IMG/VR virus record: IMGVR_UViG_3300031873_000004
Coordinates: 1 to 64,000 of that record
Strand: one strand, 5' to 3'
DNA: 64,000 nucleotides
Origin: a virus
Under the pieces are notes generated by a model, which saw only the letters and a list, made by a program, of their open reading frames with translations, was not told the DNA's origin and made no database searches. Below, one piece after another: positions 15,651 to 63,982 of this stretch (the first letter of the stretch is position 1; each line of letters begins with the position of its first letter). Made by a program: the position numbers and the translations under genes.

Positions 15651-15721
15651 CGCGATTTAAGCCCTTTAAATTAGCCAAGCTATACCAAGGGTAGGGTTTG
15701 GCTTTAAATCGCGTTAAAAGC
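15651..15721 (-). repeat. 71-bp dispersed element, copy A
   Basis: Plus strand CGCGATTTAAGC-N17-CTATACCAAGGGTAG-N19-TTAAAAGC. Confidence 0.8.
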
Positions 15722-15743
15722 CGGTTTCCTGCGCGTAGGGTGG

Positions 15744-16394
15744 CTATTTAGGCTGGTCAGTACCCGATATGCGCCTATCCGAACCCGTAATCTTGAAAAT
15801 ATCGCACATTTCGGCGATTCGGGACGGTATTCGATCTCCATATTTCCCGGCCAGTGCGTTGAGTGTCAGGTTGCTCGTGATGATTGTTGGTTGGAGGCGG
15901 GCATTACGGTATCTCCAGTCGATAATGTGGTCGAGGGTTTGCACTGCCCATTCACTCGGTTTGCTTGTGCCGAGATCATCAAGAACAAGAGTGATAGCCC
16001 AGCATAATTGGTTTACGATATCGGCCTCACCAGCAGAACCATTGTTGCTGTATGACGCTCGCAGTGAATATAAAACGTCATCAACTTTTTTGAAAAGGTA
16101 CTTGCTGGTAATTCGATAAATAGCCTCATCCACAGTTTCGTTTTCTTGCAGGTGAGTTATTTTATGCGTCATTCGAGCGTGAATAATCGCAGCGGTCATG
16201 TAACTTTTACCAGTGCCGATGTCGCCGTGCAAATAAATACCACGCCCGGCGTTGAGTGATTTCAAGATGCCTTCCCATAAAATTTGATCAGTGGTTTCTC
16301 CACGAGCATGAGTCATGTTGTCCGGGACACCTATTGCAATGAGCATTTGTTTCGTGTGGTTGGTTACGTATTTCAAAAAGTCATCTTGACTCAT
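15744..16394 (-). CDS. DnaC/IstB-like helicase loader ATPase
   Basis: GDIGTGKS, LVLDDLG, IID.RY, TSN, RI.SRI. Confidence 0.9.
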   Translation of the reverse strand: MSQDDFLKYVTNHTKQMLIAIGVPDNMTHARGETTDQILWEGILKSLNAGRGIYLHGDIGTGKSYMTAAIIHARMTHKITHLQENETVDEAIYRITSKYLFKKVDDVLYSLRASYSNNGSAGEADIVNQLCWAITLVLDDLGTSKPSEWAVQTLDHIIDWRYRNARLQPTIITSNLTLNALAGKYGDRIPSRIAEMCDIFKITGSDRRISGTDQPK

Positions 16395-17232
16395 GGTGAA
16401 ACTCCTTTACGTTGTCATATTTGTTCGGGTTGGTTGATATGCTCGCGTCACCTTTCGCTGATACCTGTTCATACTTTCCAGGGGTAGCAGGTACTCCGTA
16501 AAATTCACCAGCACCTTTTCTTACGCGCGGTTGACGGGTGGGTGCATCTCGTCGCATTTGAGATTCCAGAATGTCAAACTTAATTCTTAACTTTTCAGTT
16601 GATAAAATATTCGAATGCCAGAAGTCGCTTGTTTGACACCAATCAATAACAGCCGCTATGCGATCTCTTGAACGTTTATCTATGCGAAGCATTCGGTCTA
16701 TGACTTTAGCCCATTGCTGAATGTTAGGTAATTTGAAGTCTTGTTTCTGAGCAATGATGCGATTGAGTAATCTTTGAGATAGTTCTATTTCCACACCAGC
16801 CTCAGAAAAGGTTTTGGTTTTCTGAGGAGATGTTTTAGGTTCTTCTTTACTATTATTCTTAGCTATAGTATATGGTAGCTGTTTTCGGCTAGGCAGGGTA
16901 GCTATTTTCAGCGAGTCAGGGTAGCTATTTTCAGCTAGTCTGCCTAGTCGTAGAGATCGCCACCTACCATCGAAATTTACCTGTTGTATAATTTCAGCAG
17001 CTTTCAATTCAGATATCAAATGACTGACTCGTCCCACGCTCAGGCCCATGAACTTTGCAAGATATGCATTGCTGGCATAGCATCCGCGTTCGGGATCTTG
17101 AAGTGATCTTATCTCGGCGGCGAGAACCTTTCCCATAGTTGATAATGTTGGGTGAGTCCATATTTCAATGGGGATAGTTATATGAGTTACTTGGCGTTTT
17201 GGTTGTTCGGGATTTATGTCATTTCTGGGCAT
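16381..17232 (-). CDS. Replication initiator (N-terminal HTH, lambda O-like layout)
   Basis: CYASNAYLA HTH; FWHSNILSTEKLR.KFD.L C-domain; internal iterons; followed by DnaC. Confidence 0.85.
   Translation of the reverse strand: MPRNDINPEQPKRQVTHITIPIEIWTHPTLSTMGKVLAAEIRSLQDPERGCYASNAYLAKFMGLSVGRVSHLISELKAAEIIQQVNFDGRWRSLRLGRLAENSYPDSLKIATLPSRKQLPYTIAKNNSKEEPKTSPQKTKTFSEAGVEIELSQRLLNRIIAQKQDFKLPNIQQWAKVIDRMLRIDKRSRDRIAAVIDWCQTSDFWHSNILSTEKLRIKFDILESQMRRDAPTRQPRVRKGAGEFYGVPATPGKYEQVSAKGDASISTNPNKYDNVKEFHHESR
16874..16938. repeat. Three iterons (GGTAGCTRTTTTCRGC, 23-bp period), probable replication origin
   Basis: Copies start at 16874, 16897 and 16920 inside the initiator gene, next to an AT-rich tract. 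Confidence 0.8.
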
Positions 17233-21941: not shown

Positions 21942-21993
21942 TGTCAGCTCCCTTTCAGGTTATATGACCGACGGTCTTCGGGGCCGCCACCAT

Positions 21994-22065
21994 GTCGCTC
22001 TCGTTTTGTTACCCATAATATAGCCTATCGCGGGTATTAAGTCAATAAGAAAATGCAAATATATA
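21994..22065 (-). promoter_or_regulatory. Early sigma70 promoter TTGACT-N17-TATATT, copy 1 of a 72-bp duplication
   Basis: Near-identical to 23567..23638; AT-rich UP element. Confidence 0.8.
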
Positions 22066-22074: not shown

Positions 22075-22662
22075 TTACAGGCTCTTTTCAGCAGAAATCC
22101 TCGTTTTCCGGCGCTTAACCGGCACCCCCGCAATCTCCGTCCGCAGCTCCCGCATCGTTTCCCGTGTGTCAGCCCAGGTCAACCCCTGCACATTGCGAAG
22201 ATGCTTGACCACCTTGCCCCGCGCCTTGGTATGGCTCTCCGTGCCTTCGATACCGAGAACCTCCGGGTGGTTGGCGACGAGCCATGTTACCTTGTACGCA
22301 GCCTCGCTCAGCATGGCGACACTCTGTTTGAGGATCAGCACGTTTTCCATATCTGAATGACTGTGAGATACAACCGCTTCTGCCTCGGCTATATCTGCGT
22401 GAGTATGTGAGCGTTCATCGTTGCAATAGGTCTGCAAAGCGTTTGATATTGCCCGCCAGATAAATGTGCTTTCAGCACCCCGTTCGCTATCGTATTTCGG
22501 AGCAGCTTCGACCAGAGCGAGGCAGGCTTCGGCAAACAACTCTTCCTGTTCAATGCCGGATGATCGGGAGAACCCCCAAGCGATTTTGTGCAGGAGTTTA
22601 TAGTTGCGCTCGTACATGGAGCCGATGTCATTCGTTGAGTTAGTTTTCGAGGCTGTCAGCAT
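22075..22662 (-). CDS. Sigma70 region 2-containing transcription factor
   Basis: EELFAEACLALVEAAPKYDSERG.ESTFIW..I. Confidence 0.75.
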   Translation of the reverse strand: MLTASKTNSTNDIGSMYERNYKLLHKIAWGFSRSSGIEQEELFAEACLALVEAAPKYDSERGAESTFIWRAISNALQTYCNDERSHTHADIAEAEAVVSHSHSDMENVLILKQSVAMLSEAAYKVTWLVANHPEVLGIEGTESHTKARGKVVKHLRNVQGLTWADTRETMRELRTEIAGVPVKRRKTRISAEKSL

Positions 22663-23443: not shown

Positions 23444-23566
23444 TTTAAAGTCTCCTTTAGAAGTTGGTGCCGAGGGCTCGTCACCCTCGGCTGTATAGGT
23501 TAGTTTGCAGCCGCACCCTTGAGCTGTGCCATTTTGTCGGCCATCGCTTCATGGTCTGTGGCCTTT

Positions 23567-23638
23567 GTCGCTCTCGTTTTGTTATCCATAATATAGTCTA
23601 TTGCCGATATTAAGTCAATAAGAAAATGCAAATATATA
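23567..23638 (-). promoter_or_regulatory. Early sigma70 promoter, copy 2
   Basis: Same -35/-10; sits at the divergence point of the two genome arms. Confidence 0.8.
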
Positions 23639-23702: not shown

Positions 23703-24374
23703 ATGCCAAGAGGCGACTACAAAAAGCCGAAATTACGCGTTAAAAAATCACCAGCATTGCAGCACGGGAAAAAGGTAGCGGGACGACCCACGTCATACGA
23801 ACCTGACCGCCACCCGCACGACGCGTATGTAGCCTGCTCACGTCTGGGCGCAGAAAACAAAGACCTCGCAGCCTTGTTTGAGGTGAGCAGTGAGTTGATC
23901 GAGCTCTGGTTAAGGAACTACCCTCAATTCAAAGCAGCTGTTCGTGTCGGTCGTGACGAATGGGATAGTATCAACATTGAGAAATCTCTCAAGCGCCGCG
24001 CAATGGGGTATGAGTACGAGGAAGTCAAGAGGAGCGCAAAGAACGGTCTGGAAACTACCACTAAGCACATGGCACCCGACGTCGGAGCCTGCATATTCTG
24101 GCTCATCAATCGACAGAAGGATCGCTGGCAGCAGATGCGCAATGTAGTCGTAACGGGTAAGACGGAGACAGACTTCAATGTCACTACAAATCATAAAATC
24201 AGCATAGCCAATCTCGACAGGAGTCAGCTTGAGCAGTTGCGAGACATTATCACCATCGCCAAGAACGTCCCCGCCCTCCCCGCACCAGTCCCCGGCAATG
24301 GATCTGAGCATATTGCCGGAACTGGAAACGGTGGAAACGGAACTGGCGACCAGGTATCTAAAGCCGTTCACTGA
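23703..24374 (+). CDS. Terminase small subunit
   Basis: GRPTSY, HTH, PDVGACIFWLINR; precedes TerL. Confidence 0.85.
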   Translation: MPRGDYKKPKLRVKKSPALQHGKKVAGRPTSYEPDRHPHDAYVACSRLGAENKDLAALFEVSSELIELWLRNYPQFKAAVRVGRDEWDSINIEKSLKRRAMGYEYEEVKRSAKNGLETTTKHMAPDVGACIFWLINRQKDRWQQMRNVVVTGKTETDFNVTTNHKISIANLDRSQLEQLRDIITIAKNVPALPAPVPGNGSEHIAGTGNGGNGTGDQVSKAVH

Positions 24375-25881
24375 GCAAGCGTGGCACGTGCTTGAGCCGG
24401 TGACAGACTTTACTCCCGGATGGCACCTCGATGCCGTTGCAGACCATTTGGAGTCTGTCGCGCTTGGCATAGGGAAGCCTGATGCGCCCGGTGCAATCCG
24501 TCGTTTAATAATCAACATCCCGCCCCGTCACAGCAAGAGCCTGCTCGTATCGGCAATGTTCCCGTCATGGTTATGGATAAATCACCCTGCATTCAGAAGC
24601 ATCACCGCGTCATACGGCCAAGACTTAGCGGTACGTGACGCAGTCAAGATGCGCAGGCTCATCACATCAAACTGGTATCAGAATCGCTGGTCAGACAGAT
24701 ACCAGCTCACCGGCGACCAAAACGCCAAGCAACGGTACGAGAATGACAAGACCGGCTACCGCATAGCAACCAGCGTGGACGGCATAGCGACAGGTGAAGG
24801 CGGAGACGGAATATTTATAGACGACCCGCACAACATCAAGGACAGTCTGAGCCCAGTCAAATTGCAATCAGTCATAGACTGGTTTGATATGGTAATCCAA
24901 ACCCGCCTAAACAATCCTAAGACAGGTTTCATCGTGCTGATCATGCAACGCTGCCACGAGAGGGACTTGACCGGCCATATATTAAGCAAAGAACTCGGCT
25001 ACACCCACTTATGCCTACCCGCCAGGTACGAGCGGAATCATCCGCAAGCATGGCCAGCCGACCCACGTTCGGTAGACGGCGAGTTGTTGTGGCCGAGTAT
25101 GTATGGCGAGACTGAATTACTAAGCCTCGAAAAAAGTATGGGGACTTATGCGGCAGCTGGTCAATTGCAACAGCGCCCGACACCTCGCGAAGGTGGGATG
25201 ATAAAGCGGGGATGGTTCACGATAGTGGAAGCCCTCCCAGCAGCACATCGTCGCACAGTCCGGTTCTGGGATAGGGCGAGCACGGAGAAGACGAGACTGA
25301 ACGATCCTGACTGGACAGCGGGTGCGAAGTTGAGCTGTCATGAGGGACTTATATACATTGAGCATATAGATGCGTTTCAGGCATCCAGCCATGAGAACGA
25401 GAAGCGCATCAAGCAGCGGGCTATCATGGACGGACCTGATGTGCAAGTGTTCATGGAAGAGGAGCCCGGCAGTAGCGGTAAGGATACCATCTCCCATTAC
25501 TCCCGTAACGTGCTTCAAGGGGTCGCTTTCAGGGGTAGACGCTCGACTGGACCGAAGGAATCCTATATAGACGTGATTGCTGCGCAGGCCGAGGCTGGCA
25601 ACGTGCGCTTGCTCAAGGGTGACTGGAACGAGGCATTTCTCAAGCAGTGCGAGCAGTGGCCGATGGGCGCGCACGATGACTATATCGACGCGGTGGCGAA
25701 GGCTTACGCTGAGATAAGTGCGAACTCAGTCAACATTCGCGACTTGAGCGATAACGTAGACATGGATGTGATAGACGAGAACACGGCACGAGCTGAGGAG
25801 TTGCGGGCGTATCAGAATATTAATCCCTCGATGATAGAAGCAACGCCGACAAGCATATTCAGAGATCCGGAGGCTTATTAA
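24298..25881 (+). CDS. Terminase large subunit
   Basis: NIPPRHSKS, FIDDP, IMQR.HE.DL, RFWD.A, HDD.IDA. Confidence 0.95.
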   Translation: MDLSILPELETVETELATRYLKPFTEQAWHVLEPVTDFTPGWHLDAVADHLESVALGIGKPDAPGAIRRLIINIPPRHSKSLLVSAMFPSWLWINHPAFRSITASYGQDLAVRDAVKMRRLITSNWYQNRWSDRYQLTGDQNAKQRYENDKTGYRIATSVDGIATGEGGDGIFIDDPHNIKDSLSPVKLQSVIDWFDMVIQTRLNNPKTGFIVLIMQRCHERDLTGHILSKELGYTHLCLPARYERNHPQAWPADPRSVDGELLWPSMYGETELLSLEKSMGTYAAAGQLQQRPTPREGGMIKRGWFTIVEALPAAHRRTVRFWDRASTEKTRLNDPDWTAGAKLSCHEGLIYIEHIDAFQASSHENEKRIKQRAIMDGPDVQVFMEEEPGSSGKDTISHYSRNVLQGVAFRGRRSTGPKESYIDVIAAQAEAGNVRLLKGDWNEAFLKQCEQWPMGAHDDYIDAVAKAYAEISANSVNIRDLSDNVDMDVIDENTARAEELRAYQNINPSMIEATPTSIFRDPEAY

Positions 25882-30031: not shown

Positions 30032-30438
30032 TGTATCTCGAAGGCGCGTATGTTTATGGGAACTGGGCGACGGCGACGATAACGCTGGACAATCTCGCCA
30101 ATGCCAGCATCGCCACCAGCGCCGCAGTGAACTTCGCGGGCGCGTTCGGCATCGAAGTTGAGAGCGTCATCTCAGGCACGGCTGCTGCGACGGCATATTT
30201 GAACGTGGCTGTGGAGCGCGTAGGATCCGATGGGGTGACCGCGAGCGCATACGAGAACGCGGCTGTCAGCAAGCCGCAATTCTTCAGCGCCACGCCCAAT
30301 GTATTCGTTCGCTATTTTGAAGGCCCGTTCGCCATCGTCAAGTTTGCGGTCGAGAACAAGACGGGCGCAGCATTAAGTGCGGTCGGTAACACGCTGAAGT
30401 ATCGCACAGTGACTCCGAGAAACACGGTGACTGCTTGA
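30031..30438 (+). CDS. Putative virion decoration protein
   Basis: TITLDNLAN, VENKTGAAL motifs. Confidence 0.6.
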   Translation: MYLEGAYVYGNWATATITLDNLANASIATSAAVNFAGAFGIEVESVISGTAAATAYLNVAVERVGSDGVTASAYENAAVSKPQFFSATPNVFVRYFEGPFAIVKFAVENKTGAALSAVGNTLKYRTVTPRNTVTA

Positions 30439-31268
30439 TTGATCCGAGTCGTGGCATAAAAGGTTTCTTTCCGAAAGGAGTAGCTTACTGGGCGCTCGAT
30501 GGGACGCCAGCAGGGTTGGTTGACCAGTATGGAAATGGGAGCAACGCGGCTACGGCGGGAGTGTCCAGTAAACCGTCTATAATTCATAACGGAGGATCGT
30601 CTGGCTATGCGTTCGATAATGACGTAACCAAGATTATCACGTTGCCATACAACATACTAATGAATAGTCCACAAGTAACAGTTATATCGTGGGCGATTCC
30701 GTCATATGCTACAGGATTAACTGAGATACTGCTATGCAAGTTTAGGAATACAACGACTGGGAACGCCTACAGATTAGCTTTCTTACCACCGAATAATGTT
30801 ACGTTTCAAACGACAAATTTGGATGGCGCGGTGAATGTGCTGAACTCAGCGACGGCTATAAATGGTCGTGGTAAAACGAATAATAAGCCAACTTGTTTTA
30901 TTGGAACACTTGATGTAAATCTGAAGTTGACACTATATATAAATGGCGATGTAGTAGCTGAGGCACAGTCGTTAGCAGGATATATAAAGACGAACAACGA
31001 CGCTGCTATAGGTAGATTGTTGGGTTCAACGCAACCATTCAACGGTATCATTGGAGAGTCGGCAATACTCTCATACGCCATCACATCTCAGCAAGCAGCA
31101 GATTATTATAAGTACGCAACCGAGACGCCCGTCAAGTATTGGTTCTTTGGCGACAGCTTGAACCTCATAGCGCAACGAGTCAACGAGAGTGCCGGCATTG
31201 TCGACTCAGGACTTCGAGGGATACCGCAACCAAAGATGAATGTGCCGCGTCGAGTGTTCACGCGATAA
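30435..31268 (+). CDS. LamG/concanavalin A-like domain protein
   Basis: AYWALD, LYING, IG...FNG.I.E. Confidence 0.75.
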   Translation: MIDPSRGIKGFFPKGVAYWALDGTPAGLVDQYGNGSNAATAGVSSKPSIIHNGGSSGYAFDNDVTKIITLPYNILMNSPQVTVISWAIPSYATGLTEILLCKFRNTTTGNAYRLAFLPPNNVTFQTTNLDGAVNVLNSATAINGRGKTNNKPTCFIGTLDVNLKLTLYINGDVVAEAQSLAGYIKTNNDAAIGRLLGSTQPFNGIIGESAILSYAITSQQAADYYKYATETPVKYWFFGDSLNLIAQRVNESAGIVDSGLRGIPQPKMNVPRRVFTR

Positions 31269-46420: not shown

Positions 46421-47116
46421 TTGTACGAGACCTACCCGGACACAAGTTTTAACAGCCGCCTTATCAACCCGCAGGAACTTCCGTGGCGATTCACATACGT
46501 CATCAAGACGCCTCCCACGGGTATGCCTGTCACGCTCGATGAGGTCAAGACATTTGCCAGGCTCGACAGCATGGATGAGGATAGTCTCATTGAAATGTTC
46601 GTGCAGGCAGCAACCTCGGCGGCTGAAGAATATATGGGTAGGTCGCTCATGCAGCGCACTGTCACCATGCGCTTTGACTTCTTTCCTGGGATCATCTCAA
46701 TGCTCCCTCGCTTCCTTGCAACATCTTCGTTGCCAGTACCGTTGATCAAGCCGCCTCTCGTGAGTGTGACGGAAGTGCGCACTCTGTACGAGGATGATTC
46801 GGTGGCTGCAATCTGGCCTCTCGATCAATTCTATTGGCTCGATGGCGACCAAGCGGAGTTCGTGATACGGCGTGGAAGTGTACCGCCTATCAACGTGGAG
46901 CGCTACAAGAACGGGTTTGAGATAGATTACGTGGCTGGCTATGGGATTTCAGGTGCAACGCTTACACAGCAGCGTGCAGCGATCCCGGCACCAATTAAGA
47001 TTGGCCTGCTCGTATGGGCGGCAGCAATGTACTCTCAGCGGGGCAAGGCAGCAGCGGCAGAGCCTCCAGCGGATGCTAAAATGATGTTAGATCCGTATAA
47101 GATAATAAGGATTTAA
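46421..47116 (+). CDS. Head-tail adaptor (gp6-like)
   Basis: PVTLDEVK, AEEYMGR, YVAGYG, LDPY. Confidence 0.88.
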   Translation: MYETYPDTSFNSRLINPQELPWRFTYVIKTPPTGMPVTLDEVKTFARLDSMDEDSLIEMFVQAATSAAEEYMGRSLMQRTVTMRFDFFPGIISMLPRFLATSSLPVPLIKPPLVSVTEVRTLYEDDSVAAIWPLDQFYWLDGDQAEFVIRRGSVPPINVERYKNGFEIDYVAGYGISGATLTQQRAAIPAPIKIGLLVWAAAMYSQRGKAAAAEPPADAKMMLDPYKIIRI

Positions 47117-47118
47117 CC

Positions 47119-47529
47119 GTGACATGGCTCGTTGATAAACTCAGTCGAAGAATCGAGTTCATGCAGCAGGAGCAGACTGCGGCGAGCGATGGTAGCTACA
47201 CTCAGCAGTACAAAGTTCTCGCGAAGGTATGGGCTGGATGCGAACCGTTGAGCGCGAATGCCGCTAAGTATATACGCGGAGTGCAAGTCGAGGACGGTCC
47301 CACGCACAAGTTCACAGTCAGGCGCAGCATACCGATGGGCGTCGATGTATACGGAACAGGGTTTGTGAAGGCTGATAATTTTATCTTCCTCCTCAGCACG
47401 CATCAGGGAACGATTGGTAGGCTGTTTCGCATACTGACTGCGGCAAACAACATGGAGCAGGATGAGTTCATCGAAGTGATCGCGAAAGAGATGGGCTCGT
47501 TTGATACAAGTCGCGGGGTGATGGTATGA
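47119..47529 (+). CDS. Head closure/stopper protein
   Basis: L.RRI, VWA, THKFTVR; position. Confidence 0.75.
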   Translation: MTWLVDKLSRRIEFMQQEQTAASDGSYTQQYKVLAKVWAGCEPLSANAAKYIRGVQVEDGPTHKFTVRRSIPMGVDVYGTGFVKADNFIFLLSTHQGTIGRLFRILTAANNMEQDEFIEVIAKEMGSFDTSRGVMV

Positions 47530-48020
47530 GCGATGCGATTCTTTCAGAGCTGCGGGATTATGCAGGCCGTGTGATTACGTTTGAAGAGATGAGCATGAAT
47601 ACTCGACGCGTGCTCGGACGAGTTGCATATGCCCGCTGCATGGATGTGCTTCAAGAACATGCTCTTATGTTTCGCAACGAAGTTGTACTTTCCATGCGAA
47701 ACTCTCCAGCTAAGCTGTATAAGGTAGGAACGAATAAACGAGGTAAGGGTGCATATCGTCGTGCATCGCAAGAGATGTTCCCACCAAGACCTAATACGGG
47801 CGACCTGATTCGTTCGATAGTGATGGACGTTCGTCACGCTGAGGTTGAGGTTGGTAGTAACATAACCAAGCCAGCCTATCCGTATTTCCTTGAACATGGT
47901 ACTCGTCGCATGGCCCCGAGACCATGGCTCGAACCTGCGATACTGAAGATCAAACCGAAGCTCGATGCAGCATTGACTCGTACTCTGCGTGACATAGCTG
48001 CGGAATTTAGGCAGGAGTAA
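47526..48020 (+). CDS. HK97 gp10-like tail completion protein
   Basis: TGDL.RSI, FLEHGTRRMAPRPWL.PA. Confidence 0.85.
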   Translation: MSDAILSELRDYAGRVITFEEMSMNTRRVLGRVAYARCMDVLQEHALMFRNEVVLSMRNSPAKLYKVGTNKRGKGAYRRASQEMFPPRPNTGDLIRSIVMDVRHAEVEVGSNITKPAYPYFLEHGTRRMAPRPWLEPAILKIKPKLDAALTRTLRDIAAEFRQE

Positions 48021-48021
48021 T

Positions 48022-48702
48022 ATGAACCTAGGCGCAGTGGCATTAAAAATACGGGCAGGTAATACTCGCTTTGGCAACCGGGTCGTAGGTACTGTTGAAC
48101 TTGCACTTGCTCAGGAATACACTCTTCAGAATGAGACTGCATTTGTCATACCGTTGAGCGAGTCTGTCAAAGGCCCGAATCAAAACGATACTTTCGTCAA
48201 TCAAAGAATTGTTGAAAATTTCGGTGTTATTGTAGCCATCAAGAACGATACCGCCAGCACGGACAAGCTCGGATTCAAGGCGTACGATGCTCACGGTGAT
48301 GTGCGTAAAGAATTGCTGACTGCATTACTTGGATGGACAATGCCGGAAGCAACTGACGGCACAGCTCAACCGGCTGCACTTGTGTATTATAACGGGGGTC
48401 GAGTTATAGATATAACTCCCGCATGGTTGTGGTACTCATTTGAATTTGTCGCCGAGTCCCGCATCACAAGCGATGTTGACGGGGTGGATGAAGCTCTTGC
48501 CGCTCAGTACACCGACCAGTTCTTGAAAGTATACACTCAATATGCGGTGTTCGATCAAGCGGTACTGCCGCTTGAAGGAGCAGCTCCACAACTTCCCACG
48601 AACCTACTCACGCCGACAGTCACTGAGCTGTTTGGTCCTGAGTTCCAGTTCGGCGATGCGTTTGCTAAAGACATGAACACGCTGGATACCGCAGCTGGTT
48701 AA
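48022..48702 (+). CDS. Tail terminator protein
   Basis: ALLGW motif; position before the sheath gene. Confidence 0.7.
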   Translation: MNLGAVALKIRAGNTRFGNRVVGTVELALAQEYTLQNETAFVIPLSESVKGPNQNDTFVNQRIVENFGVIVAIKNDTASTDKLGFKAYDAHGDVRKELLTALLGWTMPEATDGTAQPAALVYYNGGRVIDITPAWLWYSFEFVAESRITSDVDGVDEALAAQYTDQFLKVYTQYAVFDQAVLPLEGAAPQLPTNLLTPTVTELFGPEFQFGDAFAKDMNTLDTAAG

Positions 48703-48712
48703 AGGAGAGATT

Positions 48713-48937
48713 ATGAGTACTGTATTTGTAAAGCCCATTGCTGGCGCGACGATCCAGACATTCGATACGAAGACTGCCATCCCGGCAGAGGGAATGGAAG
48801 TCACGCTCGACACATTCTGGTCGAGGCGCATTGCTGACGGTTCGGTTGTGGTAGTGGATAAAACAATAACGGCTGCTACTGAGGAGCCAGCTGAGACGGC
48901 TGTGGAGTCCGTCACAAATACGAAAAGAGGGAGGTAA
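48713..48937 (+). CDS. Mu gp38/DUF2635-like protein
   Basis: FVKP..G...P.EG...FW.RRIADG.V. Confidence 0.85.
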   Translation: MSTVFVKPIAGATIQTFDTKTAIPAEGMEVTLDTFWSRRIADGSVVVVDKTITAATEEPAETAVESVTNTKRGR

Positions 48938-48940
48938 CAG

Positions 48941-50428
48941 ATGGCAATATCTTTTAATAACATCCCGACGACGTTGCGGACTCCGGCAGTCTATGTCGAA
49001 GTTGACAACTCACGGGCGATCAAAGGACTGGTGGCGAACCCGCACAAGGTGCTCATCATCGGTCAGCAGGTATCAGGCGGAGGCTCGGCTGCCAAGCTCG
49101 CGCTCAAGCAGATATTCAACGAGAACACGGCAGCCGGATACTTCGGTAACGGATCGCTGCTCGACCGTATGTGCCGCACGTTCAAGAAGAACAATGCGCA
49201 GACGGAATTGTGGGCGATTGCACTGAGCGAAGCTGGTGTGGCTACCGTAGCTGCTTCCGCTGCATTCACCGCAACGGGGACTTGCACGGGCGGTACAATC
49301 TGTCTGCTGCTCGGCGGCGTTCAAGTCAACACGCCACTTACAAGCGGATGGTCAACCGGACAGGTGATGAGCGCCGTGGCGAGCGACATCAATGCAAACT
49401 CAGCATTGTGTTTCCGCATGTCGCATACCTCCCCGGCGAGCATTGGCTACCTCGTCGCGCAGAACAGCGGCTTGGTGGGTAACTACTTCGACGCAAGGCT
49501 CAACTTCTATGACGGTCAGGTGACTCCGTCCGGTATGACATTGAATCTGAGCGTGGTCGCTACAGGTTCAGGTAGTCCGGTATTCACTGACGTCTGGGCA
49601 GTGGCTGATGCAATCCAGTTCCACCATATCATCCACCCGTACATCGATTCAACGAACCTGGCAGACATCGCCACCGAGCTGAACACGCGCTATGGTCCGA
49701 TGGTGGATATGCAGGGTCATGCATACACCGCAGTACGCGGAACACTTGCATCTTGCGCAACCCTCGGCCTCACTCGCAACTCTCCGTTCCAGACAATCAT
49801 CGGAGCGAACGACAGTCCGAGCAACCCTGAAAACTGGGCAGCGGCACTCGGTGCGGTTGCGAGCTTCAATCTGAATAACGACCCGGCTCGCCCGCTGCAT
49901 TATCTCACGCTTCAGGGGATTATCCCTCCGACGATTCAGTCCGGCAACCGATTCAGCCAGAGCGAGCGGAACATCATGCTCTTCGATGGCATCGCTACCT
50001 GGATCGTGGATGCAAGCGGCAATGTGAACATTGAGCGGTGCATCACCACGTACCGCACGAATGCACTCGGCCTAGCTGATCCCAGCTATCTGGACATTGA
50101 GACCATGTTCACCATTCTTGAAATCCGGTACCAGTTTAAGAATCGGATGGCGACACGCTTCATCCTGCCTCGCTTCAAGCTGGCTGATGACGGTAACGTA
50201 TATCCGGCAGGGTCGCTCATCGCAACACCTGGCACAGTCAAGCAGGAGATCATTGCGCTCTTCACTCAGCTGAGGGATGCGGGACTCATCGAGAACTTGG
50301 ATGACTTCGCCAATAACGTCAGGGTCGAGCGTGATACTGTGGATATGAACCGGGTGAATGTACTCCTTCCTCCGGACCTCATCAACCAGTTCCGGATACT
50401 TGCAGGACAAATTCAGTTCATTCTGTAA
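48941..50428 (+). CDS. Mu-like tail sheath protein
   Basis: ISFNNIP..LRTP, DPARP, ITTY, PDLINQ. Confidence 0.95.
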   Translation: MAISFNNIPTTLRTPAVYVEVDNSRAIKGLVANPHKVLIIGQQVSGGGSAAKLALKQIFNENTAAGYFGNGSLLDRMCRTFKKNNAQTELWAIALSEAGVATVAASAAFTATGTCTGGTICLLLGGVQVNTPLTSGWSTGQVMSAVASDINANSALCFRMSHTSPASIGYLVAQNSGLVGNYFDARLNFYDGQVTPSGMTLNLSVVATGSGSPVFTDVWAVADAIQFHHIIHPYIDSTNLADIATELNTRYGPMVDMQGHAYTAVRGTLASCATLGLTRNSPFQTIIGANDSPSNPENWAAALGAVASFNLNNDPARPLHYLTLQGIIPPTIQSGNRFSQSERNIMLFDGIATWIVDASGNVNIERCITTYRTNALGLADPSYLDIETMFTILEIRYQFKNRMATRFILPRFKLADDGNVYPAGSLIATPGTVKQEIIALFTQLRDAGLIENLDDFANNVRVERDTVDMNRVNVLLPPDLINQFRILAGQIQFIL

Positions 50429-50436
50429 ATCAAGAT

Positions 50437-50461
50437 GCGGGGCTTCGGCCCCGCTTACTTT
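50437..50461 (+). terminator. UUCG hairpin between sheath and tube genes (terminator or stabiliser)
   Basis: GCGGGGC-TTCG-GCCCCGC-TTACTTT. Confidence 0.6.
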
Positions 50462-50475
50462 AAGGAGGTAGACAA

Positions 50476-50862
50476 TTGGCAAAAATTACTGGGCGCGTGG
50501 AAGTGGTCGTCAACGGCGTCATACTCCTGAACAAGAACGGAGCCTCGGCATCCGGTATCGGCGAGTCCGGCAAACCTGCAGTCAAGCGTGAACCGGTCAT
50601 CGGCGACATGGGAATTCATGGCTACAAGGAGACCATCGAGGCTGCACGGCTCACGGTATCCATTACCGATCGCGACGATGTACGCCTCAGCGACCTCTGC
50701 AAGATCAACGGAGATGGCACAGTCATCATGCGAGCAGCTCTCGGCGGCAAGGTGTACACGATGGCAAATGCCACCTGTGTCGGAGCGCTTTCGGTGACCG
50801 CAGGTGAGGGTGACACGAAAATCGAGTTTGTCGGGCCGTATTGGACCGAGACAACCGCCTAA
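50476..50862 (+). CDS. Mu-like tail tube protein
   Basis: RE.V.G..G.HGYKE, EG...IEF.G. Confidence 0.9.
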   Translation: MAKITGRVEVVVNGVILLNKNGASASGIGESGKPAVKREPVIGDMGIHGYKETIEAARLTVSITDRDDVRLSDLCKINGDGTVIMRAALGGKVYTMANATCVGALSVTAGEGDTKIEFVGPYWTETTA

Positions 50863-50889
50863 AACAGCGCTTTAAACGAGCGCAAACCC

Positions 50890-50960
50890 GCTTTTTAGCC
50901 ACTTTGAGAGCGCGGACGAGGGTTTCTATAGCCCTTGTATTGAAAACGGCTTAAATTGCC
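50890..50960 (+). repeat. 71-bp dispersed element, copy C
   Basis: Same blocks and spacing; abuts the AAGGAGG RBS. Confidence 0.85.
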
Positions 50961-50971
50961 AAGGAGGATTC

Positions 50972-51247
50972 ATGGAAACGGCTACAAAAACCATCAAACT
51001 GCAATTCCCGATAAAAACCTCAACTCCCGGAGGTGCTTCAGCTACCATCGAAAGCGTTGAGATTCGCCGACTCAAAGGAAAGGATTTGAAGTTCCTTCCC
51101 AGTAGCGATCCGAAACCTGCTGATTTTATTCCGCTCATTTCTTCGGTTACTGGAATGGTGATCAAGGATGTTGAAGAGATGGACCTTGTTGATCTCACGG
51201 CGATAGGCAAGGACTTGATGGCTTTCTCAGCGGGATACCCGGAATAG
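50972..51247 (+). CDS. Tail assembly chaperone (Mu gp41/P2 E-like)
   Basis: IKL.FPI, IRR.KGKDL, EMD..D. Confidence 0.85.
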   Translation: METATKTIKLQFPIKTSTPGGASATIESVEIRRLKGKDLKFLPSSDPKPADFIPLISSVTGMVIKDVEEMDLVDLTAIGKDLMAFSAGYPE

Positions 51248-51381
51248 AATGGGAGCGCATCGTCTGGGGTATCGCCCGCGTGTATCATTTCTCCCCTGAG
51301 TCAATAGGGGACATGACGATGGATGATTTAGATTTTTGGCATCGAGGGATTCAGTGGTTAGCCGAGGAGAGTAATGGCTGA
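51223..51381 (+). CDS. -1 frameshift extension of the chaperone (P2 GpE'-like)
   Basis: IARVYHFSPESIGDMTMDDLDFW; no start codon of its own. Confidence 0.75.
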   Translation, partial: FLSGIPGIEWERIVWGIARVYHFSPESIGDMTMDDLDFWHRGIQWLAEESNG

Positions 51382-53002
51382 ACAGCAAGTCACATGGTTG
51401 CTAAAACTACAAGATGAACTTACCTCAGGGCTCGATAAAGTTGGAAACAAGTTCAAGGAGCTAGGTAAGCATCAGAGTGAGGCCGGGAAACGTCTGACCG
51501 ATGTCGGCAAGACGATGACGGCCTTTGTCACCACAACCATCGGGGGAGCTGCAACTCTTGCAATGAACGAGTCTCGTAAAATCGAGAGTTCGTTCGTCAA
51601 TTTACGGCAAACTGTTCCCGGCACCATAGATCAGTTGCATAGTCTTGTTAAAGAACTTGAAAATGTCGCAATGGCAACGGGAGCCCCGATCGAAGGGCTC
51701 ATGGCCATTGCCGGGGTTGGTAGTCGTGCCCGTCTGAGTGACCTTAAAGGTTTTACTCAGATGATGACCGATCTGAATACAGCTACTGGTAATTTTGGCG
51801 GCGAAGAGGGTGCAAAGCAATTTACGCATCTTGCCAAAGCGTTGAATGTAGCCGAAAAGGATTACAAAAGTCTGGCGTCAATGCTCGACTGGGGCTCTGA
51901 TAATTTCAACACTTCAGCCGAGCAGATCGCGGGCATGACTCGCGAGTTGTCAGGCTTGACCGCCATTACACCAATCACAAAAGAGCAGCTCATGGGAATT
52001 TCAGCATGGGCCGGATCGTTTGGTCAAGAAGGCAGCACGGCTATGATGACCATCTTGAATAAGATGGGTGAGGCCGTTAAAAAAGGAACAGGGTCGGATC
52101 TTGGATGGTTTGCTGACATGTCTAAAATGGACGCCGGTGTGTTCATGGATTTATTTAAAAAAGACGCACCTGCTGCGTTAGCGAAAACTCTCGAAGGACT
52201 CAAAAATATGAGTGAAGAGGGTATCAGGACAGATGTTATTGTGAAGCAAATTGGATGGGGTGGTATTCGTACATTAAGAACAGCGCTCACAGGAGCGAAC
52301 GCTATCAACGATTTGACAATGGCTACCAATGGGATGAATAAGGCTTCCAAAGAGGGGGATAATCATACGAAGGGTGCATCTATGACTTATAAAACCCTCG
52401 ATAGCACTCTTAAACAATTACATCAAACGTACGGTGCGCTCATGGTTCAATTCGGCGAGCTTGTGTTGCCGCTATTTGTCGCATTGGCAAAAGCATTAAA
52501 AAGTCTTTTAGAAAACTTCACTCATTTACCGACATCTTTCAAATACGCGGTTGCGGCTCTGGGTGGATTGCTCGCGATCGCTGGACCTGTATTAATGGCG
52601 CTCGGTTCGATGGTAGGTACTCTGGCAATGCTTAAAATAGCATTCCCAGCTGTAGGTCTTGCTGGAGTCACGGGACTCGCACCGCTGGCGGCGATGCTGG
52701 GAGTGATGGCGTTGAAAGCAGCAGCCATCATGCTTGCTTGGGAAGCAGGAAAGAAAGTCGGAGGATGGATTAACGAAGGCATAACAGCACTCAGCGGCGG
52801 ACAAGAAGGTGCCGCAGGGGCACAGATATATGACTGGCTCCATCCAGAAGCTGCAAAAGGTGTGGGTGGAAATAATAGTAAGTCCGAGCTGAAGGTAGGT
52901 CTCGACCCAGGCCTCGTTGTAAAGGGAGCCAAGACCACCGCTGGAAATATGGACTTGACAACCGAGATGAACCCATATGCCGGATGGATGGCAACGCCAT
53001 GA
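51374..53002 (+). CDS. Tape measure protein (TP901-like core)
   Basis: Ala/Gly-rich helical protein with hydrophobic segment; position. Confidence 0.88.
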   Translation: MAEQQVTWLLKLQDELTSGLDKVGNKFKELGKHQSEAGKRLTDVGKTMTAFVTTTIGGAATLAMNESRKIESSFVNLRQTVPGTIDQLHSLVKELENVAMATGAPIEGLMAIAGVGSRARLSDLKGFTQMMTDLNTATGNFGGEEGAKQFTHLAKALNVAEKDYKSLASMLDWGSDNFNTSAEQIAGMTRELSGLTAITPITKEQLMGISAWAGSFGQEGSTAMMTILNKMGEAVKKGTGSDLGWFADMSKMDAGVFMDLFKKDAPAALAKTLEGLKNMSEEGIRTDVIVKQIGWGGIRTLRTALTGANAINDLTMATNGMNKASKEGDNHTKGASMTYKTLDSTLKQLHQTYGALMVQFGELVLPLFVALAKALKSLLENFTHLPTSFKYAVAALGGLLAIAGPVLMALGSMVGTLAMLKIAFPAVGLAGVTGLAPLAAMLGVMALKAAAIMLAWEAGKKVGGWINEGITALSGGQEGAAGAQIYDWLHPEAAKGVGGNNSKSELKVGLDPGLVVKGAKTTAGNMDLTTEMNPYAGWMATP

Positions 53003-57613: not shown

Positions 57614-58345
57614 ATGGCTCGTGACTGGAATTCATACTATAGACTGATACGCTCTTTGTTCCCGCGAGGACGTGCGTGGAACATAGACAGTGGGGTGATG
57701 AAGGAGCTTGTGCAAGGGAAAGCGGTTGAACTTGCGCGGGTGGATGCGCGGGTGGATGCTCTATTGCTCGAACGAAGCACGCTTACAGCAACCGAACTAC
57801 TTGAAGAGTTTGAGACCGAGTTTGGGTTGCCTGACGGGTGCATCGACCCGTCGACATACACAACGGCTGAACGCAGAGCAACGCTGAACACCAAACTCAA
57901 ATCACTCGGTGGGTTGCGTCCGAATTATTACATAGCTCTTGCCGAATCGCTTGGCTATACAGGTGTGACAATAACCGAATACACTCCGTTCTGGTGCGGG
58001 CTCGGAGTAAGTGGCGATCCGTGCGGCGACCAGGAGACAATATTTTACTGGACGCTCAAATGGACATATGACTTGACGAAGCCGCTGCAAGACGGATGGG
58101 ATTTGGAATGTCTCGTCAATCGTTATAAACCGGCACATACGGTGGTTATAGTACTGATGACTGGACCGCCATTCAGCAACGCATTCAGCAACGCGTTTTA
58201 CGCAATGCCTGCAGTGAGCTTGCTTGGCGGAGCATTCAGCTTAGAATTTGACAATGCGTTTGATGTGAATTATGGAGGCGGATTCGATTCAGTTGCATTC
58301 GCTGATGCGTTTGCAAAACCAGGCGGTCAATATTTTGGATATTAA
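57614..58345 (+). CDS. Mu gp48/DUF2313-like baseplate protein with FxxxF-repeat tail
   Basis: P.G.AW, GLPD.C, LEC...KPAHT. Confidence 0.9.
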   Translation: MARDWNSYYRLIRSLFPRGRAWNIDSGVMKELVQGKAVELARVDARVDALLLERSTLTATELLEEFETEFGLPDGCIDPSTYTTAERRATLNTKLKSLGGLRPNYYIALAESLGYTGVTITEYTPFWCGLGVSGDPCGDQETIFYWTLKWTYDLTKPLQDGWDLECLVNRYKPAHTVVIVLMTGPPFSNAFSNAFYAMPAVSLLGGAFSLEFDNAFDVNYGGGFDSVAFADAFAKPGGQYFGY

Positions 58346-61200: not shown

Positions 61201-61236
61201 TTTTATCCTCCCGTGAATTATTTACCTTCTTGACTT

Positions 61237-61262
61237 ATTATACTAGACTCACGTCGTTTAGT
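61237..61262 (-). promoter_or_regulatory. Putative middle promoter, near-identical to 473..498
   Basis: TCATAACTAAACGACGTGAGT-CTA-GTATAATA. Confidence 0.8.
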
Positions 61263-61282
61263 TATGACGATTTGAAAATAAT

Positions 61283-63898
61283 TTACAACTCATCCCAGAC
61301 AGCTCCGTTGTCATGCGGAAACTTCTCTATATACTGAGCAAGCGCTTCATGTGCCCTATCGTCAAGCCCAGCACGTTTCAGGATGGACGCATAGGTTAGG
61401 AGGAAGTGGTCAAACTCCGTACTGTTGGACATTGCTTCGCTTATCCACTTCAATCCCTCCTGCAAGTCAGCCACAGGATCGTTGTCAGCCCAGAGCTTGA
61501 CGAGTACCTGGCCGTACTCGAACTTAAAGCGATGGACTTCCTGAAAATCCTCCACCAACGACTTGTACTCAGCCGCCGCCAGGACCAAATTATCAAGCAT
61601 GTTATATGCCGATGCGATGCCCCAGCGAGCTTCTTGACGGGTAGGAATTAACTCCTTTGCCTTCTTCAGCAACTCCATCGCCTCGCTGAACTTTTTACCA
61701 TCGCGTCCAAGCTCAAGTGCTTCGTCTATGAGGTCGAGATACTCCGGGATTTTATTGCGATTGAGAGATAGATCAACCTCGTAAACGTCCTTTGCCTTCT
61801 CAATTGCATCCGTACGCATGATAATTGACCTATCAATTATATCGGCAGCATGTTTCATGATCAAAGCATCGGGTCGAGGTGCTTGTTTCATTGTCCGACA
61901 CGCTTCAAGATATGGTTTGGCGAATGCACCTGTGCTCAAATAGTGCTCAGCGTCATCTAAGCTCGGTGCATCGGGATCGCCAATCGAATCGAGTATTCCG
62001 GACTTCCCCTGACCGTACTCAATGAGCGTATTGCGAGTCTCCTCGTAAGTTGCTTTCAGGTCCTTTGCGGCATCACGAGCGGCCTTCAGGATTATCTCGT
62101 TGCGGTCAAGCCTGATGTCTCGCTCCTTCTTAAACTTCTTGGTGGCAAGCAACTGCGCATCAGCCTCCACGTTGAGCGCCCGTCCCTGAATAGCTCGGCT
62201 TGCTCCGTATATGGCAAGCGATACTGTCGGCATACGCTTAGCGGCTTCATACGCCACCGTGCTGTGTTTAGCATTTTCGTGAAATAGCTTCATCAGCTTT
62301 TTCTGACTGGTCGTGTTCCTCAATTTCATCACGGTCTTGAGTCCCAGTTCAGCGTGCTCGATAATGAGCTTGAGCAGTTTCAAGTCAGTAGTGAGCAGCG
62401 GGAGCAATCGCTGAATGGTCGCGTCGGCATTCGGGTCGAGATTGAGCAGAGGCTTGAGCACTGATTTGTCTATTGGTGCAATGGCATGTTTAGCAAGGGC
62501 ATCTGACAGGAACATACGCTTGGCCCCGCGCTTCCTCGCGCCACCCTCCGTACAGTCGATAGTCTCGGTATCTTTGAACGCTTCAATGAGTCGCTCAAAC
62601 GCTGTGATAAACGTCATCAACCCTGTGTTCGTGAGCACTGAATCACCCCACCACCCTGCAACATAGGTCTCAGGCCCCATGCCGATGTCGGTGCGGGCGT
62701 GAAGCGTCTTGCTTCGCGGATCGTCAACCACCCATTTGATCTGACCGTCAACCACAGTAATGTGACCAGCACTATCCGCTTGCATGAAATGGCTGGTCGT
62801 GCCGAGGGCTAGGTTCATTCCGACGAACATCACAGGCGAGCATCCCATATGAGCGCAGAGCGAGTACGCCATATGAGCGACCGAGCCGCCCTGTGCCAGC
62901 TCACCTTTATCTTTCAAGATACCGTGAGCAGTTTCGTCATATCCCTGATTGATTGACGCGCTAATGAACTTCGGACCCTTGTACGCCTTGAGTATAGGTG
63001 CGTACGTCTTGTTGATAGTGACCAGCGGTACGGTCTCGTCCATCAGTCCTGCGAGGTGGGTCATATTTACTTCACCGAAATCTACTGTACAAATGAAGTC
63101 TGGTGTGATGCCATAGGCGAGAAGAGGTCGGAGTGCCTGTGCTACTGCAACAATAATAACCTTGTCTTGTGTCTCTTTGAGCAGATGGATGTTGCGATTG
63201 AGAGCTGGACCTGTGCCAACCATCACTGCAGGCTTTCCCTTGAATAAATCCTTGAGGTCGTTTACTCCTCGATGGCGGATGACATATGGTAGGGTGGCGA
63301 TGTCATTATCAGCAATCTTAGCTCCGGCGCTCACCACAGTCCCAGTATTGCACTGGATTGCGTTGAGCGACTCAATTGTGTACGTGCTCAGCTTCCAGTA
63401 TTCCGGTCGAGTGCGAGTGATGAGTTCGATCAACACTCCCCAGTCCTCAACTACCTTTGAACCCTCCATGAGCGAAAGGAGGAAGTCAACTTCGGCTTTA
63501 CCGGGAGCAATGAGTAGCGATTGATTTTTGATATACTCGGACAAATCATATTGTGCAAACATCAATCTCAGCATATGAGATATAGGCTCAACTGCAATCA
63601 CATGATGCCCTTTTTCCATTTTCTTGAGAAGTAAATTCAACGCATGACCGAGGCCCACGCCTATGAATACAGTGACTGTCTCTTTATCGGAGCGAACCAT
63701 GTCAGCAACGCACTGTGCATCTTTGAATGGGTCGGTCACATCGTATACCGGTAGTGGTCGCCCATTCTCGGTTATCCAGAGCTGATCACCCTCATTCCGT
63801 ATCCAATCCTCGGTTGCACCCTTCTCCAACCACTCGGCAAGTCCGGGGTGGGTTTCTTTGATTGCTACCATGTTTTTCTCGTATATTTCAGTGCTCAT
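61283..63898 (-). CDS. Maf (motility-associated factor/DUF115)-like glycosyltransferase with C-terminal TPRs
   Basis: YEKN...HP.LA, G.GLG, FKGKPAV.VG.GP.L, GI.PD, GGSV, GC.P..FVG.NLA, TEGGA. Confidence 0.85.
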   Translation of the reverse strand: MSTEIYEKNMVAIKETHPGLAEWLEKGATEDWIRNEGDQLWITENGRPLPVYDVTDPFKDAQCVADMVRSDKETVTVFIGVGLGHALNLLLKKMEKGHHVIAVEPISHMLRLMFAQYDLSEYIKNQSLLIAPGKAEVDFLLSLMEGSKVVEDWGVLIELITRTRPEYWKLSTYTIESLNAIQCNTGTVVSAGAKIADNDIATLPYVIRHRGVNDLKDLFKGKPAVMVGTGPALNRNIHLLKETQDKVIIVAVAQALRPLLAYGITPDFICTVDFGEVNMTHLAGLMDETVPLVTINKTYAPILKAYKGPKFISASINQGYDETAHGILKDKGELAQGGSVAHMAYSLCAHMGCSPVMFVGMNLALGTTSHFMQADSAGHITVVDGQIKWVVDDPRSKTLHARTDIGMGPETYVAGWWGDSVLTNTGLMTFITAFERLIEAFKDTETIDCTEGGARKRGAKRMFLSDALAKHAIAPIDKSVLKPLLNLDPNADATIQRLLPLLTTDLKLLKLIIEHAELGLKTVMKLRNTTSQKKLMKLFHENAKHSTVAYEAAKRMPTVSLAIYGASRAIQGRALNVEADAQLLATKKFKKERDIRLDRNEIILKAARDAAKDLKATYEETRNTLIEYGQGKSGILDSIGDPDAPSLDDAEHYLSTGAFAKPYLEACRTMKQAPRPDALIMKHAADIIDRSIIMRTDAIEKAKDVYEVDLSLNRNKIPEYLDLIDEALELGRDGKKFSEAMELLKKAKELIPTRQEARWGIASAYNMLDNLVLAAAEYKSLVEDFQEVHRFKFEYGQVLVKLWADNDPVADLQEGLKWISEAMSNSTEFDHFLLTYASILKRAGLDDRAHEALAQYIEKFPHDNGAVWDEL

Positions 63899-63911
63899 GA
63901 ACCCTCCAAAA

Positions 63912-63982
63912 CGCGATTTAAGCTACTTTGCCGACCTTGTCTATAGAAAGCCTCGTTCGAGCTATGAAAACGGCTTAAAAGC
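63912..63982 (-). repeat. 71-bp dispersed element, copy D
   Basis: Plus strand CGCGATTTAAGC-N17-CTATAGAAAGCCTCG-N19-TTAAAAGC. Confidence 0.85.

Follow-up and report, generated by a model that had tools for sequence, protein, structure and literature searches.

A helically phased 92-bp intergenic element in four sense-oriented copies in a sediment phage genome, a possible movable transcription-control cassette

In this study, we analysed a non-coding element that is present in four copies in the genome of a sediment phage, IMG/VR record IMGVR_UViG_3300031873_000004 (79,431 bp; CheckV completeness, 97%). The element was originally noticed in the first 64 kb of this record (positions 1 to 64,000, hereafter the window). 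Our tentative reading is that it is a cassette of double-stranded DNA that is bent by protein, controls transcription and has been moved as a unit, most likely serving as an internal promoter that depends on a phage factor. The copies share a gapless block structure and an extreme 10-bp phasing of A/T tracts, all lie in the sense orientation shortly before a start codon, and they occupy junctions that are empty in related phages.

Copy number, extent and sequence of the element

The original prediction described a 71-bp element of fixed geometry. A search with the 71-bp pattern gave matches at 15656-15721 (minus strand), 36924-36989 (plus strand), 50890-50955 (plus strand) and 63917-63982 (minus strand), and the reversed control gave none. 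When a profile built from the four copies was run against the whole 79.4-kb genome, copies A, B, C and D scored 71.0, 78.1, 82.5 and 80.4 bits, respectively. The next-best match scored 12 bits and lay on the reverse strand of the element itself, because the element has partial dyad symmetry. Therefore, the genome contains exactly four copies, in agreement with the prediction. Their alignment contains no gaps within the 71 bp, and the fixed spacing thus stands. The extent does not: conservation runs approximately 20 nt further in the 5′ direction (ACG.GC.GAAAC.C) than first described, and the conserved unit is therefore approximately 92 bp. Defined in this way, copy A is located at 15649-15740 (minus strand), copy B at 36905-36997 (plus strand), copy C at 50871-50962 (plus strand) and copy D at 63909-64000 (minus strand), where it reaches the edge of the window (genome position ~64002). 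Successive copies are separated by 21.2, 14.0 and 13.0 kb, in agreement with the 13-21 kb originally described.

Pairwise identity among the copies is 55-72%, with invariant blocks. Block I reads GAAAC.CGCTTTTWA, the second arm C..TTT.A, the invariant core block ACGAGGCTTTCTATAG and the 3′ arm AA....CTTAAA..GC. In copy C, block I occupies 50883-50897, the second arm 50898-50907, the core (ACGAGGGTTTCTATAG) 50916-50931 and the inverted 3′ arm 50947-50960. The arm motif thus occurs twice in direct orientation on the left (5′) side and once inverted on the right (3′) side. Alignment columns 29-38 and 82-91 are complementary in 75.5% of the cells, compared with 18-47% when they are slid by 1-3 columns, which bears out the roughly inverted arms noted at the outset. 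The element is non-coding and A/T-richer than the genome. The combination of low identity, gapless spacing and invariant blocks suits selection at contact points better than it suits recent copying. The statistics of the element rest on five copies, namely the four described here and one in a related lineage (L032/L068, see below).

Helical phasing

The A/T tracts had been suspected to recur at about 10 bp, and this was borne out in all four copies. When the AA/TT Fourier amplitude at a period of 10.0 bp was ranked against all 92-bp segments of the genome, copies A, B, C and D were at the 99.8th, 99.6th, 100th and 100th percentiles, respectively; among A/T-matched segments, they were at the 98.5-100th percentile. 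At most 1 in 5,000 shuffles reached the amplitudes of the copies, and almost all of the 25 most strongly phased segments of the genome lie in copies A, C and D. The copy in L032 ranks at the 98.6th percentile. Phasing was unremarkable in the other promoter-like repeats of this phage and in the repeated cassettes of the related phage G001, both of which are described below. In the alignment, T-runs are located near columns 25 and 35, a TTT near column 55 and A-runs near columns 75 and 85, giving steps of 10, 20, 20 and 10 bp, with T-tracts on the left (5′) side and A-tracts on the right (3′) side.

This pattern suggests that the element is double-helical DNA that is bent or wrapped on the surface of a protein. 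Because 10-bp phasing is a property of double-helical DNA, a function as RNA is disfavoured. The bent or wrapped protein–DNA site of the original prediction is thus supported by phasing that is specific to the copies and by the lack of a fold shared by them as RNA or single-stranded DNA (see below), whereas packaging, recombination and nucleoid organization, which had been listed as its functions, gained no specific support. No match to the consensus sequence of integration host factor (IHF), WATCAANNNNTTR, was found with one mismatch or fewer on either strand of any copy.

Gene context of the copies

Copy A fills most of the 109-bp gap between the gene for a DnaC-like loader (15744-16394) and that for the N-terminal half of a C5 DNA methyltransferase (15044-15634), and it heads a block containing genes for a DnaB-like helicase, a clamp, a DNA polymerase, a clamp loader and UvsY/UvsX-like proteins. 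Copy B precedes a gene for a 177-amino acid protein (ATG at 37030), which is followed by a gene for a 111-amino acid protein and the portal gene. Copy C fills the 109 bp that separate the tail tube gene (50476-50862) from the gene for a tail assembly chaperone (Phage_TAC_7; 50972-51247), with the tape measure gene next. Copy D fills a 108-bp gap between a GNAT acetyltransferase gene (genome positions 64007-64564) and a gene (61283-63898) for an MptE/Maf-like protein of 871 amino acids. The copies therefore head replication, head, tail-assembly and glycosylation blocks. The methyltransferase, tail chaperone and Maf genes had been correctly named as downstream genes, but the gene taken for a virion protein gene encodes the 177-amino acid protein, which has no family match. 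Late activation, another suggested function, is too narrow, since copy A precedes the replication module.

The element follows the strand of the surrounding genes in all four copies, its orientation flipping with the direction of transcription as had been described. With the L032 copy included, all five copies have the sense orientation, with their ends 11-35 nt short of the next ATG, and four of the five come within 21-27 nt of the preceding stop codon. The conserved part stops 16, 35, 11 and 13 nt before the start codon in copies A, B, C and D, respectively; in copies A, C and D, this is immediately 5′ of the Shine–Dalgarno sequence, which itself lies outside the conserved part. The 5′ part of copy B encodes the last seven codons and the stop codon of a small open reading frame (ORF; 36772-36942). 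This ORF (56 amino acids) is conserved in the related phage G004, and the insertion of copy B changed the C-terminal tail of its product.

Filled and empty junctions in related phages

Relatives were gathered using the portal and sheath proteins. They comprise G001 (IMGVR_UViG_3300037424_002485; 88 kb, with terminal repeats and rated 100% complete), G004 (52 kb), L027 and approximately 35 shorter contigs. The closest relatives share 57-73% sheath identity with this phage (73% for L027 and 57% for L032). Among annotated phages, there was no close match (top portal identity, 35%), and no prophage relatives were found in bacterial genomes by a sheath-protein search.

Searches with the pattern (three mismatches allowed), nhmmer and a covariance model detected the element in none of the relatives, including G001, G004 and L027, except L032 and L068. 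L032 contains one homologous copy (63 bits), sense-oriented and located in a 111-bp gap, and L068 carries the same copy; when 38 related virus records were scanned with a covariance model based on sequence only, the L032 copy alone was recovered. The genes flanking this copy are homologues of 46421-47116 and 47119-47529, which are only 2 bp apart in this phage, so that the single homologous copy recovered by profile and covariance scanning sits at a different junction. Its 5′ half is 78% identical to copy A, which is less similar to its own siblings.

We compared the junctions at sites B, C and D with those of the relatives; the gene order around site A differs in them. G004 is empty at sites B, C and D, and G001 and L027 are empty at site C, representing a presence/absence polymorphism. 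The stop-to-start distance between the tube and chaperone genes is 12-25 bp in G001, G004 and L027, and this junction is similarly tight in the majority of the 20 relatives for which the two genes were placed. The GNAT and Maf genes abut in G004, and at site B of this relative, the end of the homologous small ORF overlaps the ATG of the next gene. The cassette thus sits at junctions that differ between lineages, and closer relatives lack it; these filled and empty junctions lend support to mobility. Absence from related phages, which the original prediction had regarded as a sign against the element, is largely what was found (the complete G001, G004 and L027 lack it and L032/L068 has one copy), but we take it to reflect gain in particular lineages rather than a lack of function.

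Other insertions were also seen in this region. In L031 (3039-3289) and L032 (4483-4733), a Cys-rich ORF of 68 amino acids lies between the tube and chaperone genes, and L027 (4640-5350) contains a gene for approximately 230 amino acids, homing-endonuclease-like by eye only, between the sheath and tube genes. The tail-module junctions of the relatives seem to be insertion hot spots.

Beyond the relatives, exact full-element patterns gave no match in viral contigs and five matches each in genome contigs and metagenome contigs, all of which were single, scored ≤11.5 bits and were attributable to chance. Thus, with two exact patterns, no true copy was found in one genome per species (185,579 species) or in metagenome contigs. 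A looser pattern for the 5′ half matched six viral sequences, only two of them real (L068 and L069, the latter being the record L032), and 17 genome sequences, all by chance; a pattern for the 3′ half gave two matches, both by chance. When contigs from four other sediment runs were compared with 36000-52000, one contig of 382 nt, showing 20 differences, spanned 50580-50961. Among the joints listed for these short contigs, none bypasses copy B or C.

The distribution of the element recalls MITEs (miniature transposable elements with inverted repeats), and a miniature mobile element had in fact been suggested at the outset. In its strict form, this explanation holds that the element is selfish, that its inverted arms are the ends bound by a transposase of the host or another element, which would let it jump into intergenic junctions, and that it has no role for the phage. 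Junctions that are filled here and empty in relatives, the homologous copy of L032/L068 at a junction that is empty here and a patchy distribution in which the complete G001 lacks the element all fit such an origin, as do the imperfect inverted arms of 10 bp, the small size of ~92 bp and the non-coding, A/T-rich sequence; moreover, MITEs shared between viruses and hosts have been published (PMC11602168). We nevertheless regard a purely selfish element as unlikely. Identities of 55-72% with exact spacing and invariant blocks indicate long-term selection rather than a recent burst, the arms appear not to be terminal, with conservation running ~15-20 nt past the left arm, and all five copies share a single orientation. 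In addition, the flanking repeats that might represent a target-site duplication are short and inconsistent (for example, AAATAG beside copy A and TAGC beside the copy in L032), no transposase or integrase was recognized among the phage proteins scanned (a subset of the ORFs), and the large genome and metagenome searches described above returned no true copy.

Searches for known signals

A scan for sigma-70 promoters found none in copies A, B and C and one unrelated plus-strand site near copy D. In an alignment reading, the candidate −10 sequences (TATAGn and TATGGG) lack the final T in all copies. No sense-strand terminator-like site was detected in any copy, while genuine intrinsic terminators are present elsewhere in the genome (e.g. 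at 44862-44924), and no tRNA or tmRNA was found in the element. The earlier statement that the element corresponds to no known site therefore holds for ordinary sigma-70 promoters and IHF sites.

Several other classes were considered and rejected. Integron attC sites possess the boxes R″ (RYYYAAC) and R′ (GTTRRRY), and the whole site forms a hairpin on the bottom strand. The arms of the element read (A/T)TTTAAG and CTTAAA(T/A), in which the position of the conserved C/G differs, and single-stranded DNA folds were inconsistent among the copies (z near 0 for copies C and D). In a sigma-54 promoter, the −24/−12 spacing would be off by 1-2 nt. The extracytoplasmic function (ECF)-type arrangement GAAAC-N16-CGT fails because GAAAC is missing from copy B and no CGT stands at the required distance. 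A T7-like CTATAG promoter was rejected as no single-subunit RNA polymerase was recognized among the scanned proteins, and FliA promoter and MotA-box geometries were dropped after inspection of the alignment.

Other repeated, promoter-like sequences, in two families in which −10 boxes of the TATAAT type are evident, are present in the genome. A 73-bp direct repeat (93% identical; 21993-22065 and 23566-23638) contains a canonical, leftward-facing promoter, TTGACT-N17-TATATT; one copy is located at the divergent early region and the other just downstream of the gene for a sigma-like protein. A three-copy family of ~50 bp on the minus strand (...GAGTCTAGTATAAT; 453-503, 61217-61267 and genome positions 69726-69771, i.e. 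L066:5726-5771) consists of CATAACTAAACGACGTGAGTCTAGTATAAT followed by a ribosome-binding site (RBS), with no −35 sequence and a small dyad, CGTC...GACG. No further repeated motif was found upstream of structural genes, and a k-mer search for another short late-promoter motif returned only Shine–Dalgarno and double-stop (TAAATAA) words. By elimination, the element is the sole repeated candidate for a promoter class other than sigma-70.

G001 provided a lead in this respect. In this relative, the core motif GGCTTTC(0-2)TAT[AG] is present exactly three times, in each case within a three-copy cassette and 12 bp upstream of TATAAT. This cassette, GGGCATAGCGAAAGCC-N12-TATAAT, is located at 13467, 22175 and 31857 (L009:13445-13525, L010:2155-2235 and L010:11835-11915), and its box is the reverse complement of the element core plus 2 nt. 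The geometry resembles that of T4 middle promoters, with an activator box in place of the −35 sequence, and we treat it as a lead. An antisense promoter with this geometry in the present element was rejected, as the −10 position reads T.AAA. and is not usable. In addition, G001 contains a 90-bp repeat (4077-4166 and 57956-58045; 93% identical) composed of the small hairpin CTACTAAAAGTAG and a strong promoter of the TTGACA-N17-TATAAT type, resembling the promoter early stem-loop (PeSL) composites discussed below.

Proposed mode of action

In the mechanism that we propose, one or more proteins would bind the repeated arm motif (GC.TTTWAGC-like), at its two direct occurrences on the 5′ side and its inverted occurrence on the 3′ side. 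The bound protein would bend or wrap approximately 60-70 bp around the conserved central core (GAGGCTTTCTATAG), with narrow A/T minor grooves recurring every 10 bp across the wrapped DNA, and the complex would control the transcription that enters the downstream gene block. The likeliest action would be that of an internal promoter that requires a phage factor and is closed to host sigma-70 acting by itself; alternatively, the complex might act as a gate for read-through. At several junctions, a unit of ~95 bp would have entered the space from a stop codon to the following RBS, and the element would therefore behave like a regulatory cassette that can be moved. We infer that a protein binds and bends the DNA and that the element has promoter activity, and likewise which factor is involved and how the cassette spread.

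The factor may be the sigma-like protein of 195 amino acids encoded at 22075-22662 on the minus strand (Sigma70_r2, 1.2e-11; phrog_351), in which region 2 alone is detectable, or it may be a separate activator. We consider the sigma-like protein no more than a candidate trans-acting partner of the element.

The features that speak for a factor-dependent promoter are the phasing, the block-wise conservation, the orientation and position of the copies, their location at module boundaries, the comparison with other promoter classes, the core motif in G001 and the analogy to the p4 sites of phage phi29 (see below). Several points weigh against it. The −11A/−7T hexamer that housekeeping sigma factors need is not conserved in any register, and promoter activity thus depends on a hypothetical alternative factor. 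G001 has a homologue of the sigma-like protein (33% identical) yet no element, so that the sigma-like protein and the element do not occur together. Relative to the gene, the G001 motif is found on the other strand, its cassettes have no homology to the reverse complement of the copies beyond the ~14-nt core, and this match may be due to chance. The orientation of the element also tracks the replichores defined by GC skew, so that transcription need not be the reason for the sense orientation. Moreover, where genes are packed tightly, any tolerated insertion between co-directional genes falls just upstream of an RBS. Finally, a promoter between the tube and chaperone genes is unusual in contractile-tail phages, as judged from the operons of P2 and Mu.

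Alternative explanations

A stoperator-like roadblock or operator shares with the factor-dependent promoter a protein bound to the bent cassette, which in this case would stop or gate RNA polymerase reading through from upstream and thereby separate temporal classes of genes. Stoperators have been mentioned as 13-bp sequences that act in transcription regulation (PMC3203893). An asymmetric site in short intergenic gaps at module boundaries, held in one orientation relative to transcription, without a promoter consensus and with the phasing signature of protein wrapping is what such a mechanism would leave. The stoperators of Cluster A mycobacteriophages likewise have one orientation relative to transcription. 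They are present as tens of 13-bp sites, however, compared with four 92-bp copies here; furthermore, no repressor or lysogeny genes were recognized, and the downstream head, tail and replication genes would still require a promoter. A roadblock therefore appears improbable.

Between 23.6 and 60.1 kb, genes point rightward; they point leftward from ~23.4 kb and over the stretch from 79.4 to 60.1 kb. The minimum and maximum of the GC skew, near 23 kb and near 60 kb, respectively, coincide with these strand switches. The copies might thus be sites for replication or chromosome architecture with strand polarity, serving in gyrase or nucleoid wrapping, in priming or origin function, or in packaging, and their orientation would then follow replication. 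The extreme phasing over 60-70 bp, the dyad-like polarity of T-tracts on the left and A-tracts on the right and the presence of T4-like replication and recombination genes would suit such a site. However, the complete relative G001 manages without the element, the copies show no tie to ori, ter or the genome ends, the IHF consensus is missing, and the tight placement before the RBS is left unexplained except by tolerance to insertion. We give this explanation a similarly small chance.

The least probable of the explanations, and in our view a very unlikely one, is an RNA element within a polycistronic transcript (a processing site for RNase III or RNase E, a translational enhancer or insulator, or an antitermination signal). 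The sense-oriented, intergenic RNase III sites of T7 are an established analogue, the copies have A/U-rich tracts and end (in A, C and D) right before the Shine–Dalgarno sequence, and the arms could pair, with three pairs changed on both sides (equalled in 27-31 of 500 shuffles); however, the RNA folds differ among the copies and are no better than those of shuffles (z-scores, −0.2 to −1.1), the RNAalifold consensus reaches only −3.6 kcal/mol and its covariation term is positive, no Rfam match was obtained at E up to 5 for the five loci that contain copies, and the 10-bp helical phasing would be unexplained.

Comparison with known systems

The PeSLs of T4-type phages are also short, repeated, non-coding intergenic cassettes oriented along transcription; they are located at insertion/deletion boundaries between related phages and are seen as moving or recombining regulatory units (PMC2839356, PMC4122927). 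However, a PeSL consists of an early sigma-70 promoter and a terminator stem-loop, neither of which is present in our element. Moreover, PeSLs flank variable genes in hyperplastic regions, whereas the element lies between conserved core genes without cargo and is helically phased and dyad-armed.

The start-associated sequences (SAS) and extended start-associated sequences (ESAS) of Cluster K mycobacteriophages are sense-oriented repeats just upstream of the starts of unrelated genes and include an imperfect inverted repeat pair with a spacer, for which a protein or RNA partner is suspected (PMC3203893). The SAS motif measures 13 bp, lies at the translation start and is present in 11-19 copies, in contrast to 92 bp and four copies here, and the ESAS has 17-bp repeats with a variable spacer of 4-13 bp, in contrast to arms of 10 bp and a fixed 43-bp spacer with a core. 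ESAS are also kept at orthologous genes across the cluster (PMC3203893), whereas the element is not conserved at orthologous junctions.

In phage phi29, p4 binds AACTTTTT-15 bp-AAAATGTT through indirect readout of A-tracts (PMC1904284) and modifies DNA topology at early promoters and at the late promoter A3 (PMC3100819). The p4 sites of the p4/p6 system (A2c, A2b and A3) share with the element an inverted repeat running from a T-tract to an A-tract (PMC1904284, PMC3100819). By analogy, the element may work in the same manner, with a phage regulator altering DNA topology to switch transcription. The p4 site spans 31 bp (8 + 15 + 8), whereas 43-52 bp, including a conserved core, lie between the arms of the element; the sequences are unrelated, and no p4 homologue was recognized in this phage.

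Bacterial MITEs (Correia, ERIC and RUP, and those shared between viruses and hosts) are small, non-coding, A/T-rich, multicopy intergenic sequences with inverted repeats and filled and empty sites, and they may carry regulatory signals (PMC11602168, PMC10969869). The element differs from them in apparently having neither strict terminal inverted repeats nor a clear target duplication, in lacking a detected partner transposase or host copies, and in its single orientation and deeply diverged copies.

With regard to activator-dependent promoters, Mu (C protein) and P2 (Ogr) each have four late promoters, and T4 has MotA-box middle promoters. Under the proposed reading, the element would resemble these sets in consisting of a few copies of a composite, factor-dependent site that head modules and lack a −35 sequence. 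The promoters of Mu, P2 and T4 retain a recognizable −10 hexamer and a position conserved among relatives, whereas the element has no usable −10 sequence and its positions are lineage-specific. Taken together, we regard the element as a variant of the intergenic regulatory or mobile cassettes of phages but a member of none of the classes compared, whose defining features it fails where tested. Its mode of action may be closest to those of phi29 p4 sites, the Mu/P2/T4 activator sets and PeSLs, and its placement resembles that of SAS/ESAS.

Other features of the genome

Both ends of the record (window positions 1-83 and genome positions 79131-79380) fall within one shared tandem repeat with 6-bp units. 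In all likelihood, the record represents a circularly closed or permuted assembly, broken inside a repeat. The genes for the large terminase (24229-25881) and the portal (37883-39322) are ~12 kb apart. Approximately 11 kb of this interval (25.9-36.8 kb) contains genes mostly without family matches, among which one encodes a protein with a Laminin_G_3 domain (30435-31268). A T4-like replication and recombination set (UvsX-like, UvsY-like, clamp loader, DNA polymerase and sliding clamp; window positions 1555-12197) is joined with initiation genes of the DnaB/DnaC/DnaD type and three DNA methyltransferase genes.

Conclusions

To our knowledge, hardly any non-coding control elements are known in uncultured phages, the genomes of which are mostly read gene by gene. 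In the phage described here, one cassette splits otherwise fused junctions that head replication, head, tail-assembly and glycosylation blocks; it bears one of the clearest DNA-bending signatures of the genome, and its junctions differ by lineage. It is possible, though doubtful at present, that it represents a new mobile cis-element, i.e. an orientation-locked, phased 92-bp cassette carrying a wrapped promoter or insulator recognized by a phage factor and inserted precisely between translationally coupled core genes. If so, transcription units would be rewired by moving a control site rather than genes. Should the element be merely selfish, it would be a rare MITE-like element inside the core operons of a phage. 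If it is a factor-dependent promoter or gate, the gain of a control site of ~95 bp would show how phage transcription programmes can be rewired, and the cassette would provide a defined, synthesizable probe for capturing its binding protein.

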